The translations under genes and the position numbers were made by a program. A DNA stretch of 63,847 nt, filler included, from Collodictyon triciliatum (Eukaryota): the NCBI GenBank assembly GCA_043381765.1. It is 16 parts of 16 records of this genome, joined end to end, with 100 filler letters (N's around TTAATTAATTAA, not from the genome) between each part and the next. Parts side by side here need not be neighbours in the genome. Positions count along the whole stretch, not along the records: positions 1 to 3,977 come from JBHJMP010006643.1; 15 more parts are not named here. The stretch is one strand, 5' to 3'. Of the stretch, positions 1-56,200 are shown piece by piece; position 1 is the stretch's first letter, and the number at the start of each line of letters is the position of its first letter. A model generated the notes under the pieces. The model saw only the letters and a list, made by a program, of their open reading frames with translations, did no database searches and was not told the origin of the DNA.

Positions 1-97
1 TTTTGTGTGTGTGTGTGTGTGTGTTTTGTATTTTGTTTTGTTTTGTTTTGTTTTCTTTTTTTTTCGTTTTCTTTTTTTTTTGTTTTCTTTTTTTTTT

Positions 98-129
<32 letters not shown>

Positions 130-214
130 CTTTTTTTTTTTTTTTTTACTTTGATTACTCAGATGATGTTAAAGAACCATTAAATTAGTTTATTCATGAT
201 TTCTATGCGTATAG

Positions 215-328
215 TGCGGGCAAGGTATTTACACTTGGGCCAACGGTGTGAGTTTTACTGGCGTTTGGGATCGAGATGTCCGAGGAGATGGAGAGTATGA
301 ATATCCTGACGGAGTGAAATACACATAG
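215..328 (+). CDS. Exon of a MORN-repeat protein (partial gene)
   Basis: After the acceptor tatag the frame reads CGQGIYTWANGVSFTGVWDRDVRGDGEYEYPDGVKYT*, matching the MORN pattern GxGxYxWxxGxxYxGxW. A further exon is possible. Confidence 0.7.
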   Translation, partial: CGQGIYTWANGVSFTGVWDRDVRGDGEYEYPDGVKYT

Positions 329-659
329 CTTTTTCTGCTTCATTATGTCCAATGTAAATATTTAGTCAACCTCGAAGAAAAGATGGAAGTTATCCTCACC
401 TTTCGATCATGTGGAAACTTTCTATAAAGCTAATCTTCATGTTCAAAGAAATTAAAGAGAAATGAAATACCAATTTACTCAATGTGCCTTTTAGTTTCAC
501 ATGCACTGTTCCTTTGCTTGACACATATACTAATAACAAGTTATAAATGAAAAGAGGTTTTTGTGAGACTAGTGATTGGAATTTACATATATAAATATTA
601 CACGTTTGGAACAAATGCATACCATCTCGAATTATGTGTGATGATACAATGATCTAAAA

Positions 660-950
660 AAGCGCTGTATGTTTCACAATTGCAAACATTTAACATCTCG
701 CGCGTCCAGACAAGGGTCTGATATGCCGCAGAAAGTTTGGGTAGACTTGTTTTTGTCTGCCGTGAATTTAAGCTATCTTTGCTTCGTTTCAATCGTAAAA
801 TACTGACTAAACTAGGAGGGGTATACCAATCTTTCGATTGGCAAACCTGGTTCGCTAGTATCCAAGGTCTCACCACTTTTTTCAGAAAGGCAGTGTAGTG
901 GCGAAGACTGCCAGGAAAGACCCAACAGCCTTTTTTTTAAAGAAGGTTGT
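660..950 (-). ncRNA. Candidate Fanzor omegaRNA scaffold / element right end
   Basis: Lies at and just 3' of the Fanzor ORF end and is dense in stems, e.g. CCAATC-GAAA-GATTGG (841-826), TCGCCACT..AGTGGTGA, CAGAC-CCTT-GTCTG and ATGTTT..AAACAT. Boundaries are uncertain. Confidence 0.45.
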
Positions 951-2844
951 ATGAATATTTTGAATAATTGAAAGAACTTTCTTTAGTTTATTTTTAGCGC
1001 TGTTAAAGTCCCTTGTCAAGAATACACTTTGCATGCTTTCTGAGCGATTGCATTCTTTACATATGAGGCATCTATACAAACTTTTTTAATTCCTTTCGGT
1101 TGCATATATTCCAGTTCTTTTTCGCAGTTGCAGCACACCTTGGAGGTTCTAAATTCATCTACGCTAACTGTTTCAAAACGTTTGGATAATATTTTTCGTA
1201 ATCCTCTTCCGATTGTTGACATAAAATGCTTCATCAGACATTTTCTGCTCCAGTTCCCATACACCAGTACAACATCCTTGCCAAATGTCTTTTCGATGCT
1301 GTCCATAAACAACTGTTCACTTCTTTTTGTATTAACATACTGTCTCCATCTCATCTTTCGAAAAGTTACATGTTCATAAAATCTGGATAATTCTATCTGG
1401 CATCTTGGTTTCATAGATACATATTTTCGAAACTTTTCATAATCAGCCGTGCATGAATTATGTTTACTTAGTTCTGTCTCTAAATCCATTAAAGATATTC
1501 TTGATGCCTCAAACCGCTGATTCTCTGAAAAATCCTGTGACCAAAAGAAACAGCACTTTGTAAACCTGTTGCCATACATATCCCTGAATAATTGTACTTT
1601 TCTTTTTTCTCGCGCAAGAGTACTTTGTGATTTTTAAGAGATTTGCTATCATGTCTTGTTTGGTGTGCCGTGCAACATAATTTCTTACCTGTCTCGTCCA
1701 CCATGTAACTAAATTAAACTTGCCTGCATCCACTCCAACTATATATTTTTTAGTCGCTAATAAAGATAAATGCTCTTCGGAAAATTCATCTATTCATAGA
1801 TATATTCTTGGGGGGTTTTTTTTTATTATTTGATTTTGAATTTGAAATACCTTTCTTTTCAAACAATGATGGCACTGCCAAGCCGTCTGTTTGTATCATG
1901 AATATAAAATTGTAGTTTCTTTGATGTAAGACCCTCTTCTTCATTTCAAATAAGTCACCCCATAGTGTCTCTTTGCATCCTGATATATTCCTCATTAATT
2001 ATGTTTTTCCAGTTGATACTAATAGATCTATCAAACATGCAACATCTAGAGTAATATGGCACGGTATATTGGTTGTTCTTGTAGAGATTGGTTGAAACAG
2101 TTTGGTTCCAATGTCCTCAAAATGCGATTCATTTAAATCAGACTTGGAATGTACTTATTTGGATTGAGTTTGACGTCATGTTCGATACCATTTACAATAT
2201 CGCTGGGAATGATATGATGCAAATGCGTTATAGCCCATTCTTCGTATTGTTCCGGTATGTCGAGATTCTTGAAGATGACTCCCTTTTTAACTTTCGTAAC
2301 TCTGCCTTTTTAGTAGCTTCCGTAATATTCTCATCTTTAGGAACTGTTTGATTTATAAAGCGCAGTAACCTCTTTTCAAAATGTTCCTTAATGTTACTAT
2401 GATAAGCTGTTAACATTTGCTTCTCCAAGTACGGTAGTGCATGAGACAATCCAACCAATGGAAAGTGTTTTTTTGGGGGAGAAGAAATCGAAAAACATAG
2501 ATAAAAATTCATCAGTCAAATCTCATATCTGGTTGTTTTATAAATGCGAGTCTATCTTTTGAAACTATTCCGACTGTCTTTGAAACGTACAAAAAACCTT
2601 TCATCGATTGTTGGGAGTTGTTGTGATTTCAATATGTAACATCTTGCAAATAGATAAGTGTCGGCAACCAAATAATGACACAATAAAACTGTATCGTTGA
2701 TTTTCTCATAGTCATCCGCATTCTTTACAATCCGACTTTAGAGATGTTTTCAGATTTCAATAGTCTGGGTATACAGACTTTAGATTCTCAGACTCAAGAT
2801 GTTTTCTTTTCTCCATCTGAAAGTCTTTGTTTAACTTTTTCCAT
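882..2844 (-). pseudogene. Fanzor (Fanzor1-like, TnpB-derived RuvC nuclease) gene with multiple frameshifts and stops
   Basis: Collinear fragments in shifting frames: N-terminal KTSLKS..KINDTVLLCHYLVADTYLFARCYIL; YHSNIKEHFEKRLLRFIN; IQTDGLAV; RuvC-I GVDAGKFNL (~1710-1736); FRKMRWRQY; VLVYGNWS..GRGLRKILSKRF; VDEFRTSKVCCNC; CKEC; RuvC-III TRDFNSAKN. No introns evident. Confidence 0.88.
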
Positions 2845-2852
2845 TAGAAAAC

Positions 2853-2908
2853 TACCGAGTTTTCAATTTTTTCCTTTATTCGATTCAAAGTACCAAGCTT
2901 TCAATTTT
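2853..2908 (-). mobile_element. 20-nt LINE 3'-end micro-insertion (2871-2890) with 18-bp TSD
   Basis: Minus-strand insert CTTTGAATCGAATAAAGGAA lies between direct repeats taccgagttttcaatttt (2853-2870) and taccaagctttcaatttt (2891-2908), 16/18 identical. Confidence 0.8.
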
Positions 2909-3639
2909 AATAAAACTTCAGTCTATTAGTCAATCTAATAATTTAATATATACAGCTGCTTAAAATCAATTAAGGTAAAATTAAGCATATACTGAGACTC
3001 TCAAAATGTGCGCATTGCAGCAAACAAACCCACAAAGTTTTTTTTACAAGTGATGATTTGAGACGAAACGCTGAGAGTCGATTCGGCGAGTTCGAAAGGA
3101 CGACCGTATAGCCATTGTGACTGAAAGTCAACATATTGGCCCCAAGCAACATGATTACCGCCACAAGTGTGGATAGTATGCTTTTTGAAATTCGCGTTTG
3201 GTGAGAGGTTTATGGGATGAGTTCTGTCTGGGCAAAGACAACGGCTTGTTTGGATTTTTGGATTTTTGAATTAATATTACATAAATGGTAAATAAAGTAT
3301 AAATTGATTATAGGAATAGAATGAGATTATAAAGTATTTTGACCATATTATATATACTAATTATATTATTATATTATTCAGGTTGTTTCTTGGATTCATC
3401 AAAGCTCCTGCTTTCGTCAATCCAAATTTAATTCGATAGTTTTCTGTGCAATAAACTGCTATGTATGGGTGCACTTTCGTTGTATAAAAAGTATTGCCGT
3501 TTGAAAGGGATAAAACCAAGTTTGTCGCAACCTTCGTAATGAAGTTTATCCATTTACAGGTTGAATGAGACGGAAGAAAAAGGAAGGAAAAAAGAAAATG
3601 AAAAGGGAAAAACAGTGAGAAAGGGACTCTTTTAATTCC

Positions 3640-3977
3640 AATAATCTATCGAGTTTTCATAAACCACCAGGCGACATACATGCACAAATTTGAAGTTTGA
3701 GATTTTGCGATATAAAATCAAGGCGCTCTCTAAGCCACCCACGGAGGGAGGACTGGGACTCATAACGCCTGGCATTGCATGGACATCGCTCACGATGATA
3801 TGGTGGACAGATATCCTTACCCATCCGAAAGGGTTTCGGCAGCGTGGAATGTGGCACCTCATCCATCGCATATGCCCGAACTTCAAGGCACAGCTCTGTG
3901 AGAGCAGAATCCCATCACTCTCGCCAAACACGCCCGAGCCGCTACTAGCGCGGTGGAAGATTCTGTATGAAAACTGT
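3640..3977 (+). mobile_element. Non-LTR retrotransposon (L1/Tx1-like) ORF2 fragment, cut by the contig end
   Basis: LSKPPTEGGLGL matches the conserved post-RT motif LxxPxxxGGLG[LI] of L1/Tx1-clade ORF2. The region is intronless and more GC-rich than its flank. Confidence 0.7.
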
Positions 3978-4077
3978 NNNNNNNNNNNNNNNNNNNNNNN
4001 NNNNNNNNNNNNNNNNNNNNNTTAATTAATTAANNNNNNNNNNNNNNNNNNNNNNNNNNNNNNNNNNNNNNNNNNNN
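3978..4077. other. Artificial contig-joining linker N44-TTAATTAATTAA-N44 (first of 15)
   Basis: Identical linkers, with stops in all six frames, start at 3978, 8054, 12130, 16207, 20279, 24353, 28427, 32501, 36574, 40646, 44716, 48786, 52855, 56924 and 60991. Confidence 0.98.
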
Positions 4078-8052: not shown

Positions 8053-9421
8053 TNNNNNNNNNNNNNNNNNNNNNNNNNNNNNNNNNNNNNNNNNNNNTTA
8101 ATTAATTAANNNNNNNNNNNNNNNNNNNNNNNNNNNNNNNNNNNNNNNNNNNNCCACTCCTAGCTTCTGCCGAGACGACCGACCAACGATTAAAAAAAAA
8201 AAAGAAATCAACAAGCGACCTGCGGATGGGGCACAAACCCAATGTTAGCCATTTACTGAAAAAAAAAATTAGCCGTTGTGCCATATCTCCCGATTTCGGT
8301 GTATAACAAATCCCTCAATGAAGCCAACCAGTCACATATAACATCCTCTCATCTTCAATTCATTCATGCAGGCTATCCTTGCCGATGTAAGATGGGTAGG
8401 CGCGGCGTTATGAGGTTCATTGGATGGCTCCGGCGCTCCATGCATCGTATATCTTTCTCATCATGGGATGGCTGAGGCTTGTAGCGCTCCACAGTTGGAA
8501 CCCGTCCTTGCTGAGAACTGAACCACAAATGGGAGTCACTACGTAAACTGATGAGGTTTTTCCCACGGTTATACGTAGTGCCGTATCCCGACTCGGTGGG
8601 GGCGGCTTCGTGGCTTCAGCACGGCTCCTGACAGTAGAACCTAATGTGGGATACAACGCACCCAACAGGCATGCCCTCATATGCATACTCTGCCCTCAAA
8701 TATCTTGTCCGCATCTTTCATCCGCTCTCTTTGTGGAATATTTCCTATTTTGGCATTCTGCTGCAAAATATACCTACAATAAATGAATCAAGTATTAGTA
8801 TAAACACATTTTGTTTAACTCAATTCTTCGTTATATGATAAGGCTATAATCCACATCGAATTCATATATGTGGAAAATGAAATATTTCTTCCATTATTTC
8901 ATCATCAGATGCAATCTATGATCAATTTTTTTTTTCACATCAATAATGAATCATCTATCATTCACTTCGAAAATATGCCATCGAAACCAATCTGACCCGA
9001 ATCCCTTTTCCATCCCTCATATAGGCACTGCTACCAGGCAACCCTTGCTGGACCCACGGACAAACTGCCCCTCACTCGGGCAACGCCTTTGTACATTATG
9101 TGCCGGGATAAGGCTGTATGCAAACTTCGGTAACGTTAAGCCTGGGTGATCAGGGTTATCCGTTTATTTAAGTTACGTACCCTTTCTTTCCGTCCTTATA
9201 AAGGCGGGTGGCTTCGACAACCGCTCGCCTCGCACGCTCGACACAATTTTTTGCCGCAGCCGGTCGGTCGCCAAGCAGTGTTGAGTATCGAGTCGACCTG
9301 CAACTGTCGTCTGTAACACGCAACCACTCGCACAAGCAACGCAAAGTGGACTCACGAGCACAATTGCACCCACGAGCACGCTCACACACCTACACACACG
9401 TACACACATGAGGGCCGATAA

Positions 9422-48885: not shown

Positions 48886-48985
48886 GTCTTCTCCTACTCG
48901 CGTTTGCTCTCTCCCATGCGCTCCCGTCCCGCCCCTTTGTATGGCATAACCTCGCTACACTTTGAATCGAATAAAGGAAAAAAAA
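48886..48985 (+). mobile_element. LINE 3' end (3' UTR plus A-tail), cut by the contig start
   Basis: Matches the reverse complement of ~52228-52326 with 3 substitutions and a small tail difference; ends CACTTTGAATCGAATAAAGGAAAAAAAA. Confidence 0.88.
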
Positions 48986-52211: not shown

Positions 52212-52642
52212 AATATATTTTTATGTTTTTTTCCTCTTTATTCGATTCAAAGTGTAGCGAGGTTATGCCATACAAAGGGGCGGGATGGGAGCGCACGGGA
52301 GAGAGCAAACGCGAGTAGGTGAAGACACTACCGTGGAGAGGCCAGCACTGGAAAGAAGTCAGTGATAGCGAGCTGGTCAGGTGGGCGTCCCAACTGGTTG
52401 ATTAGTTGCGTGGGTAGCAGGGTTTGGATATGCTGTGGGAGATATCGCACGACACATTCCTGCACCTCTCTTCGCTGCGGTCAGAGTAGCGAAGAATGCG
52501 GGCGTGTTTCAACAGGTTGTTCAGGAAGCTGTATTGCACGAGGCTCTCAAGCCTGGATACATTGATTTCTCGTTCGGACGAATCATTAGAGCGAGAGAAT
52601 GCACGCACACTCCATAAGGGCCACAGAATATATTTTTATGTT
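52212..52642 (-). mobile_element. 5'-truncated L1/Tx1-like LINE (~400 bp) with 16-bp TSD
   Basis: TSD aatatatttttatgtt at 52212-52227 and 52627-52642. ORF end LWPLWSVRAF..PRN* fits the WxxWxxRNxxxF-like ORF2 C-terminal motif, followed by a 3' UTR, AATAAA and an A-tail. Confidence 0.88.
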
Positions 52643-53235: not shown

Positions 53236-56200
53236 ACAAAAAGAAACATCTTCTGAATTCCAAACATGTTTGAATGCTCAACCTCATCATCAAAAGATTG
53301 CATTAAACTCCTTAATCAAAGACGTAGAGGTAATACTAAATCGTGGGCTCTTTAATATAAAACGGGTTGCCTCCTTTGTTACATCCAAATCTTAATGATA
53401 AACCAAAATTTTGCCTGTGACTTTTTGACAGATATTCTATGCATCAATATTTACCAACAAAAATGCCAAAAAAGCGGCATCTGAACTTCGCTTTAAGCAT
53501 CAAGAGCAGGAGAATGATGAGCATGTAACTCCACAATATTTATTAACTTTTTTTTACTTTTTTTTTTTTACTATTTACTATTTTACTTCATTATTTTAAG
53601 AGGTTGATCGTCATACTTTTCAAATTAAAAACATTCTAGTCTCTTGTCAAGGCTGGCTTGTTCATCGGAGCATCCTTATCATTAGCCACTAGTGTATTGT
53701 TAACATTTTTCGGCACAGACATTTTTTCAAGAGCAGAGCTTGTGGATGTATGTTGAAAAAATACCATCACTCTACTTTATATATGCGACGGTGACATTGT
53801 GTCCTTCATTCAAAAAAATATTATTAACTGTTTTTGCTTACCTCCAGCAATATCAATTTTTTTCCCTTTATTCGAAATCAATTTCAAATTTCAATTTTAA
53901 AAACAGGTACTATATGTTTACCGCGGCATATTTGTGATTTTGCTTATGGGCTTCTTATTTTCAGTTGACTGTTTGATTTGGTTTCATCACCGAATAAATT
54001 ACAGCTTGATACTTGACTGTAATCCACAGACTCCACTTCAATTAAATCAGCTATTTGAGGTTTCCATTTATTTTAAATAATATATTAATTTCTGATCAGA
54101 TTGTTATATTAGAAGTGGAACATTATTACTTAAGGATATGCCAAAAGAATTCAAAGAGTTAAAGATAACTAAATTATAGTTGAATGGCTTGCTTTTCCTT
54201 ACGTTCAGCAGCAACCTATATGCGCTAATTAGGCAGATAGAAGGCAATATTTAATAATCTTATTTTTTTTCTTTATTCGATTCAAAGTATTTAATAATCT
54301 TATTTAGCACAAAAACAAAAATTTTTTTATATATTTGACTTCCCCTCAATTACATACCTGGAGCCAATACAGAAAAGGGATGTTTATCTCCACTAAAAAT
54401 TTAAATATTTAGGAACATGGACATGGATTTCAATTGACATACAACTTTACCCTACGATTCTTATAGCATCGCTAGTTTTCATAATTATCCTTCCATTTCC
54501 AATATTCTGTCATCATTTGAGATTTGGCCTGATGAGGACTTTCTTAAACAGCTTCAAGGCCGGTTTCAATAGAGTTGGATTCAGGTGTGTTTATATTCCA
54601 GAACTTAACGGTTTGAACACCAAGCGGGATGAATAAGAGAAATTTGTCTTTACAACAGAGATTTCTTCCTGGCCGACCAGCTAACAAGCTTAATCGTTCC
54701 GATGCAGGTTTATATTGATTTATTCTATCAACTAATCTCTCACTGGTGACATTAATCAGATTCACACACTTATTTCTTCATTTCTCAAACAAATAATTTC
54801 ATAGGATATTGGGTATCTGATATGCCTTTCACAAGAGAAGGGGAAATTAGGTGAGTTAAAAATAAGAAGTCGTCTACGCTTGAAAAATTCAAAACTGATC
54901 AGGGATTATCCTATAGGAAAGTGCGATGAGTCCATGATTCAGATTCCCATCGTGATTGCACTTTTTCCTGCTACAATCCGCCTGGCGCAGTGCTTACGTA
55001 GATTTTATGACACTCGGGAAGCTTATCCTCATTTGGTCAGAAACTGAAATTCTTGTACATACATTAATGATATTTCGTGCAATATCATACACTTATCGAA
55101 TCATGGCGTATAGGTAAATGGGTTAAAGTATGCTGTTACATTTGCTGTTGTTTCTTTCTCAAACTTAAGGCGTGTGTACGGAGGTTTCAAACATTTTGCA
55201 TCATTCATAATATGCTTCAATATTCTCACAATTGGGTTCTTTCGATGATTTTTTTTGGATTAGATACTTTTTTGCCGTACTGGATTTTGTTTGCTTCTAT
55301 CTCCTCAATATATGGATACGTATGGGACATCAAGTATTATTCTGAATATATCTATACATATTTTTTTCTGCAGACTCAATTCGAGTCATGTAGAATATCT
55401 TTATTGATTGAGTTTTTTTCAGAATGGACTGGGGATTTGTTAATCCGAAGAAAAAAGGTTTCCTGAGGGATCATTTGTGCTATGGGAGCAGACATGTTTG
55501 CCAATATACTTATGGCGTCACTCAAATTCATTTTTGCTTGGGTTTTATTCCAACACTTAATGAGTTTATAAATTTAAATTAGAAAGAATACACACTATAC
55601 TGATATATATATATATTCTTTTGCTGACTTTCATGATAGCTATATTATTTTGGTGTGATAGCCAATATGGTATCTCGATTCGTATGGGTCATGCCAGTTG
55701 TATGGAGAAGTGTCAATCAGCCCATCTTCTCAACAGTAGCTTGCCTTATTGAGGTTTTAAGGTTTATTTATCCCAAAATTATTACAAAATACATGCGGGA
55801 ATTTTTATATTGCATATGCCTCTCTTTCTTGGTGGCTGAATTTTGTGGCGATATGCATGTGCCCCGCACTATTACTATGCTGTGAAGTAAGCCTTTAACA
55901 AGATAACTCATCAAAAATTTTATTCATATACCTAAAAGGCGCTTCCAATGGAATTTGTTTCGCATGGAAAACGAGCATCATAACAATTGTATCAATTACC
56001 GAGCAGTAAAATATTCGGATACATTTGACCGATTTATCCATGAAGATGCATCCCGTAAACTTTCGAATTTATTCCCAGTGATTTACAATATACTCCAACG
56101 CTCAAATGTTTAATCTTAATTTAAAATTATATTTTTTTACTTATTTGTCTTAATTCCCAAAAGCTTATCATCTTCAATATACATTTCAACCTTTCTTATC

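Follow-up and report, generated by a model that had tools for sequence, protein, structure and literature searches.

The DNA analysed here, further referred to as the window, is a stretch of 63,847 bases from Collodictyon triciliatum (assembly GCA_043381765.1) with an overall G+C content of 37%. It is composed of 16 pieces of approximately 4 kb each, separated by spacers in which 30 runs of 44 N are paired around TTAATTAATTAA (N44-TTAATTAATTAA-N44), the first spacer being at 3978-4077 and the others following every ~4 kb; neighbouring pieces need not adjoin in the genome. Piece 1 (window 1-3977; 3,977 bases) contains on its minus strand the locus considered in this study, a broken copy of a Fanzor1 gene. 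Fanzor1 genes entered the literature in 2013; that they are RNA-guided nucleases was demonstrated ten years later, in 2023. An earlier note on this DNA spoke of the contig of the gene; as the window is formed by 16 joined pieces, such statements reach less than 4 kb, that is, they stand for window 1-3977 only, and the window as a whole is not one contig.

As a reference for frameshift-aware alignment we used P0001, an intact protein of 648 amino acids (aa). On the minus strand, the region from 2816 to 897 is collinear with residues 1-642 out of the 648, with 383 of the 630 aligned residues (60.8%) identical and no intron-sized gaps in this alignment. The frame is broken at ten sites, located near 2732, 2590, 2514, 2305, 2111, 1815, 1795, 1709, 1506, and 1078, and interrupted by three in-frame stops, namely one TGA (2759) opposite Arg and two TAA (2135 and 2001) opposite Tyr. 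Stop-to-stop frames on this strand include 882-1085, 1016-1633, and 1509-1793, with more of them upstream. The match is far beyond chance, as a TBLASTN search of the window with P0001 yields collinear pieces in frames -3, -1, -2, -1, and -3 with E-values of 1e-75, 2e-46, and 5e-35. With ten frameshifts and three stops, no open reading frame (ORF) able to give a protein is left, and the locus is a pseudogene of the Fanzor1 family, not a working member of it. These results, obtained by the very kind of alignment that the earlier note had proposed, bear out its description of about 2 kb of collinear, intronless, frameshifted fragments. Its interval of 882-2844 does mark a gene at this locus, with the correction that the gene proper occupies 882-2816, and 2817-2844 is upstream sequence. 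No further copies beyond this locus were found inside the window by TBLASTN with eight fragments and four relatives. The features of the locus are listed in Table 1.

Table 1. Features of the Fanzor1 locus and of the surrounding repeat (window coordinates)
Feature	Position	Strand	Remarks
Fanzor1 pseudogene	882..2816	-	ATG 2816-2814, TGA 884-882; compared with intact P0001, 10 frameshifts and 3 in-frame stops
N-terminal two thirds, matching REC/WED part of Fanzor1	1731..2816	-	collinear with P0001 residues 1-363; TDG at 1890-1882; 7 of 10 frameshifts and all 3 stops
TDG motif, family-invariant	1890-1882	-	within the N-terminal part
RuvC-I Asp codon GAT in GVDAG	1728..1730	-	invariant D364 of P0001; aligns to SpuFz1 chain 777 = D383
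Gly codon in YGNW, canonical RuvC-II Glu position	1256..1258	-	invariant G521; Fanzor1 hallmark; G500 of SPu-1-1p
Relocated catalytic Glu codon GAA in VDEFRTS	1154..1156	-	34 residues past Gly; invariant E555; SpuFz1 chain 935 = E541
Zinc-ribbon (TNB) region, CCNC ... C-LIC-KEC	1050..1135	-	CCNC 1135-1124, CKEC 1061-1050; frameshift near 1078 splits the finger
RuvC-III Asp codon GAC in TRDFNSA	1008..1010	-	invariant D604; aligns to SpuFz1 chain 1000 = D606
Short 3' repeat tail past the stop codon	822..881	-	cover by other copies begins with the 822-932 bin; perfect 16-nt palindrome 826-841
Upstream part of the same repeat	2817..3186	-	joined to the gene 5' end in contigs of other copies; nested 25-nt retroposon tail 2867-2891
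Further repeated DNA	3187..3596	.	possibly part of the element, or else an independent short high-copy repeat (3367-3585); no sign of coding

The family of the gene was established by comparison at the protein level. When the 205-aa fragment encoded at 1016-1633 was compared with longer proteins, ten matches at E<=0.001 were obtained out of 508 candidates, the best one being P0001 (65% identity, 76% query coverage), and a HMMER search of a protein library with the same fragment produced 1,867 cluster representatives at E<=0.001, 799 of them at E<=1e-10. The sole three distinct sequences matched by this fragment in the PDB at E<=1 are all Fanzor1 proteins, from Parasitella parasitica (PpFz1, 1.2e-12), Spizellomyces punctatus (SpuFz1, 5.2e-9), and Guillardia theta (GtFz1, 3.1e-7). 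P0001 matches the same three proteins with E-values from 2.1e-28 to 3.7e-23, the remaining rows being myoglobins with E-values of 0.4-0.6.

We also used a profile built from alignment A1, which comprises 41 relatives hand-picked from the search listings for near-full length (585-695 aa). In the PDB it matches PpFz1 at 3.6e-101, SpuFz1 at 4.3e-98, and GtFz1 at 7e-77, and on SpuFz1 the match spans positions 7-601 out of 610 of the profile. Other matches at E<=0.01 are TranC and a Cas12m only (6e-4 to 4e-3), both on the zinc-ribbon part, and no TnpB or Fanzor2 chain appears at this threshold. The region corresponding to the N-terminal part of the pseudogene is aligned to the solved Fanzor1 chains by both P0001 and the A1 profile, that is, the likeness to Fanzor1 is full-length and includes the REC/WED part, the N-terminal pieces of the window being tied in through P0001 only. 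The fragments at 1509-1793 (with GVDAG) and 882-1085 (with CKEC..RDFNSA) are likewise assigned to Fanzor1 because they are collinear with P0001. The Pfam domain Cas12f1-like_TNB (OrfB zinc ribbon) is present in 29 of the 41 relatives; HTH_OrfB_IS605 and OrfB_IS605 are matched neither in the window fragments nor in the 41 relatives. A Fanzor2 or TnpB (IS607, IS200/IS605) would be expected to have the canonical RuvC-II Glu, HTH_OrfB_IS605 at the N-terminus, and close likeness to prokaryotic TnpB; these features are missing, with Gly at the canonical Glu position, no HTH/OrfB_IS605, and no TnpB or Fanzor2 chain at E<=0.01. By every sequence feature tested except the open frame, the gene qualifies as a Fanzor1. 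Fanzor1 structures alone were matched in the PDB, and a profile search, as suggested by the earlier note, finds the three of them over the full length of the profile, in agreement with its diagnosis of a decayed Fanzor1.

The catalytic core is retained in the broken copy. Among the 41 relatives in A1 the invariant columns (in P0001 numbering) are T312, D364, Y481, R487, G521, E555, S559, and D604. In the profile, D364, G521, E555, and D604 align to positions 777, 899, 935, and 1000 of SpuFz1 chain 8gkh_P, and subtraction of a tag offset of 394 converts these 8gkh chain positions to D383, G505, E541, and D606; the offset is our own arithmetic, consistent at all three sites of the triad. The metal ligands of SpuFz1, as given in a passage of Saito et al. 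(2023, PMC10432273), are E541, D383, N385, and D606. Section 6 of Bao and Jurka (2013, PMC3627910) describes G500 and E536 of SPu-1-1p as extremely conserved in Fanzor1, and a five-residue shift turns G500/E536 into G505/E541. According to a passage of Jiang et al. (2023, PMC10530073), Fanzors have Pro or Gly instead of the canonical RuvC-II Glu and use a Glu approximately 45 residues downstream.

The window codons place the RuvC triad at the positions of SpuFz1 D383, E541, and D606, and the Gly-for-Glu swap is found together with the relocated downstream Glu, both columns being invariant in the 41 relatives. Both halves of the zinc finger are still encoded. Moreover, the long TnpB/Fanzor motif given in section 6 of PMC3627910, D-X(125,275)-[TS][TS]-X-X-C4 zinc finger-X(5,50)-RD, is matched by the read-through of the window (a regular-expression search with X at the breaks), with a gap of 194 residues between the catalytic Asp and TS. 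All motifs named in the earlier note (TDG, GVDAG, YGNW, VDEFRTS, CCNC, CKEC, and TRDFNSA) are found on the minus strand, and since all hallmark residues are kept, its reading of them was correct. This includes the three RuvC acidic residues said to be retained, as well as the rearranged Glu of Fanzors, which agrees with the cited passage of PMC10530073 and with the G500/E536 hallmark in the cited section of PMC3627910.

The locus is part of a repeat. No public sequencing run contains half or more of the words sampled from 600-3900; eight public runs share 5-9% of them, none of these eight being an RNA run. Contigs of four of the eight runs were placed on the stretch at a likeness of >=85%. In one small run, X6, 462 contigs fall on 822-3596 and 3708-3900 with likeness from 85 to >99%, distributed as 44, 106, 186, and 126 contigs in the bands 99+, 95-99, 90-95, and <90%, respectively. 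Three freshwater or lake metagenome runs contribute 17-80 placed contigs each, and because these are mostly <95% alike, the habitat labels (lake, freshwater) show relatives and not this organism.

The cover begins in the 822-932 bin, continues as far as the 3486-3596 bin, and resumes at 3708, with next to nothing on 600-821, while on 3597-3707 there is no cover in X1, X2, and X6, and 0.27 in X3. In two contigs derived from other copies (records 29 and 30), 2733-2870 is linked to 2952-3186, and 2741-2852 to 3071-3186. As the 5' end of the gene is connected by them to position 3186, the repeat spans at least ~822-3186, and the stretch is a multi-copy, diverged repeat of at least ~2.4 kb, which perhaps extends to 3596. 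The highest depth of the stretch (557 in X6) is at 3367-3585. Two metagenome runs cover this segment with short contigs that stand apart, and it may constitute an independent short element of high copy number. In other copies we observe an A added behind 1706, an A added behind 2118, and one base lost at 2732. These three indels restore the frame, are seen in about half of the X6 depth at these sites, and fall at or within ~7 bases of the window frameshifts near 1709, 2111, and 2732. The other copies also have additional indels of their own, therefore the family is largely decayed.

The search for proteins of near length yields as the best matches fragments at 72-75% identity (P0158, P0159, and P0161), and shows no sibling from the same genome (no match at >=90%). 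A metagenome scan with the fragment 1016-1633 detects relatives in two of the 124 candidate stretches. One of them, L001, is a C-terminal piece only (residues 539-638 of P0001) without DNA likeness to the window, the other, L002, is a distant relative (24%), and neither is of help in fixing the element ends. In IMG/VR, the scan with P0007 gives 23 loci on giant-virus contigs, and that with P0002, 353 relatives, of which 80 were kept; many of these viral relatives reside on contigs, as long as 316 kb, whose names mark them as giant-virus bins. The scan with P0001, the nearest intact relative of the window, gives no viral locus. As an observation on IMG/VR itself, intact Fanzor1 ORFs are very common on giant-virus metagenome contigs (L026-L105), with lengths of 627-638 aa in the ten loci translated.

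A quick maximum-likelihood tree was constructed for 63 rows, namely the window read-through (X at breaks), the 41 A1 rows, P0003, P0005, P0009, and 18 viral ORFs chosen from the tables (10 of the 80 kept P0002 loci and 8 of the 23 P0007 loci). It is an unrooted tree with several long branches, and its rows include no named Fanzor references. In this tree the window groups with P0001 (support of 100 in the Shimodaira-Hasegawa-like approximate likelihood ratio test, SH-aLRT) and then with P0013 (96), with zero viral rows in the clade. The viral rows form two clades elsewhere; three changes of the viral label are needed, at least two of them being forced by the starred branches alone. The end branch of the window is 0.61 versus 0.22 for its sister P0001 (~2.8 times), as expected for a drifting copy. 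The earlier note suggested a Fanzor1 of the kind also found in giant viruses; this is true of the wider family (23 P0007 loci and 353 P0002 relatives) and, in the P0001 scan and the tree, does not extend to the subclade of the window.

Past the 3' end of the gene and near the 3' edge of the repeat, the minus strand has the hairpin 826-841, followed ~10 nt later by CTAG and T (812-841, by eye); the 5' end of the element is not identifiable. CTAG and T in this position may represent a Helitron-like 3' end, as a lead only. Helitrons have TC at the 5' end and a hairpin plus CTRR at the 3' end, and insert between A and T. As an alternative for Helitron/Helitron2 carriers, a passage of PMC3627910 describes a hairpin at either end together with variable duplications. 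Of 200 shuffled sequences, 197 fold less well than the minus-strand RNA of 1010-800, which includes the palindrome (z -3.27). Omega-RNA overlapping the end of the ORF is described for some Fanzors in a figure legend of PMC10432273, and by analogy an omega-RNA of this element, if one existed, could possibly overlap the 822-881 tail and the ORF end.

Other repeats are present nearby. A 25-nt motif recurs in the window at 2867-2891 (+), 19148-19172 (-), and 54264-54289 (+), with longer copies at 48959-48983 (-) and 52227-52253 (+), and a 21-mer of it has four window matches at <=2 mismatches versus none expected by chance. In reverse complement, the motif terminates with AATAAAGG followed by an A-run, and at three sites it is flanked by direct repeats of 13-17 nt; these copies look like extremely 5'-truncated tails of non-long-terminal-repeat (non-LTR) retroposons with target-site duplications. 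One of them precedes the Fanzor ATG by ~50 nt. A separate repeat starts at ~3710 (window 3663-3977, +), the same loose-end sequence preceding its start in three runs; its open frame has no Pfam match and contains a GGLGL stretch, as occurs in the C-terminal part of ORF2 proteins of long interspersed nuclear elements (LINEs). On the other side of the gene lies an isolated MORN repeat exon at 215-328 (+), with a Pfam E-value of 9.6e-5, exactly at the cut-off. Given the MORN exon and the retroposon traces, the setting of piece 1 is likely eukaryotic and nuclear. In the ORFs of 2817-3977 and 598-936, Pfam finds nothing above the cut-off; a PHD match at 3361-3504 was set aside as sub-threshold (E 0.0034, 17.8 bits versus a cut-off of 24). 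Elsewhere in the window, a degenerate tandem repeat of ~3 kb at 9173-12177 fills most of one piece, with long frames open on both strands in several phases.

Compared to the known Fanzor systems, the window family is similar to SpuFz1/SPu-1 of Spizellomyces punctatus (PDB 8gkh; PMC3627910, PMC10432273), to which the A1 profile aligns over the full length: the D/E/D triad is at the same positions, the same Gly occupies the old Glu position, and in both cases there is a single intronless ORF of ~640 aa in multiple copies, including partial ones. SPu-1 differs in having, according to passages of these papers, inverted ends of 30-33 nt and TA duplications, while none were found at the window locus; the sequence identity is low, and the window copy is no longer functional. 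PpFz1 of Parasitella parasitica (PDB 9cf0; PMC11423790) is the best PDB match for both the window fragment and the profile, and its motif around the Glu is nearly identical, IDEFRTS compared to VDEFRTS in the window. However, the match to PpFz1 consists of two stretches, the first ending at chain position 984 and the second resuming at 1096, and the intervening part has no counterpart in the window family. GtFz1 of Guillardia theta (PDB 9cer) is alike in the Fanzor1 fold and order, and a passage of PMC10432273 reports its loci to have no inverted repeats or transposase, apparently as at the window locus; GtFz1 has Asn at the third catalytic Asp, whereas the window keeps Asp (RDFNSA).

The Fanzor1 genes of giant-virus contigs (L003-L105) belong to the same family as the window, P0002 and P0007 being 50% and 40% identical to the window fragment, respectively. 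They are intact ORFs of 627-674 aa, and differ from the window in forming separate clades and in the lack of viral loci in the scan with P0001. Non-autonomous Helitron and Helitron2 carriers (CRe-1 to -3 of Chlamydomonas), as described in passages of PMC3627910 and PMC10530073, bear Fanzor1 without a transposase or classic inverted ends, as appears to hold for the window locus, but in the latter the Helitron assignment is only a lead, the element ends are undefined, and no Rep/helicase is seen.

The Fanzor1 homology, the breaks of the frame, the retention of catalytic and zinc-binding codons, and the repeat status are all direct observations, and window 882-2816 on the minus strand very probably represents a disabled copy of Fanzor1 within a multi-copy repeat of an intron-bearing eukaryote, whose ancestral mechanism would have been that of the family. 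Several points weigh against this reading. Pfam search of the eight window fragments gives only a sub-threshold match to Cas12f1-like_TNB (E 0.03, 14.9 bits versus a cut-off of 26.3), and the fragments 1509-1793 and 882-1085, when compared with the PDB alone, match no Fanzor, the hits being noise with E-values of 0.17-1. No convincing inverted or direct terminal repeats or target-site duplication were found around the locus, the ORFs of piece 1 contain no transposase domain detectable by Pfam, as the earlier note had remarked for the contig, and the exact ends of the repeat are undefined in the available copies. As for residence in a transposable element, a multi-copy diverged repeat is seen, without inverted ends, a transposase domain, or defined boundaries. 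Rfam gives no match on 1-3977 at E<=1, and the support for an omega-RNA is limited to the fold described above. Finally, the frameshifts are known from the assembly sequence alone, and runs of at least five identical bases adjoin four of the ten. The latter raises the question whether the gene could be intact in the organism and the frameshifts could be errors of assembly or sequencing, e.g., long-read homopolymer errors; none of the public runs shares at least half of the words with this stretch. We regard such an explanation as highly improbable, as the three in-frame stops are substitutions rather than indels, the other six frameshifts are away from homopolymers, the window branch is ~2.8 times longer than that of the intact sister P0001, and the copies in public runs have indels of their own, so that decay is general in the family.

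It is very unlikely that the copy sits in an integrated fragment of a giant virus and not in a cellular transposon family. The abundance of the wider family on giant-virus contigs (the P0007 loci and P0002 relatives counted above) would be in line with a viral origin, and the piece, with its 3,977 bases, leaves the wider context out of view. On the contrary, the P0001 scan finds no viral locus, the clade of the window, P0001, and P0013 contains no viral row at supports of 100 and 96, a genomic repeat would account for the hundreds of diverged copies in a single small run, and the locus is flanked by the MORN exon and the separate repeat, which looks LINE-like. The chance that the locus is a Fanzor2 or TnpB-type gene, or a prokaryotic contamination, is practically negligible: the RuvC and zinc-ribbon core is indeed common to Fanzor2 and TnpB, and the sole Pfam match is to the shared TNB domain, but the A1 profile at E<=0.01 selects the three Fanzor1 structures and then TranC and Cas12m on the TNB part only, with no TnpB or Fanzor2, Gly replaces the canonical RuvC-II Glu, the relocated Glu being in place, and the collinearity is full-length, running through the N-terminal region of Fanzor1.

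If the locus is a dead Fanzor1 copy, the ancestral intact gene would have encoded, judging by its family, an RNA-guided double-strand DNA endonuclease. Three residues would have formed its RuvC site: Asp in GVDAG, the relocated Glu in VDEFRTS, and Asp in TRDFNSA. The protein would have taken up an omega-RNA made from the element's 3' end, and the enzyme would have cut targets beside a short motif, helping the carrier transposon to persist. The copy in the window has lost the ability to make the protein and has drifted ever since.

A more far-reaching possibility, which we propose tentatively and consider rather doubtful, is that the repeat represents a high-copy Fanzor1 transposon family of a freshwater eukaryote, having neither inverted ends nor a transposase. 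Any intact siblings would then fall into one subclade with P0001 and P0013, free of giant-virus members, and would function as RNA-guided nucleases, each relying on an omega-RNA and a target motif specific to them, perhaps on a Helitron-like carrier.

A survey of eukaryotes and viruses, in a passage of PMC10530073, counts 3,655 unique Fanzor candidates, and the locus is a new, dead copy within this known, well-surveyed kind. The locus alone matters little, as Fanzor1 is well surveyed and any family of this sort can be expected to include dead copies. For annotation, the region is to be treated as a Fanzor1 pseudogene within a repeat, and not as host coding sequence. At the same time, the nearest intact protein being only 61% identical, the locus flags a genome where intact copies of a little-sampled subclade might occur.

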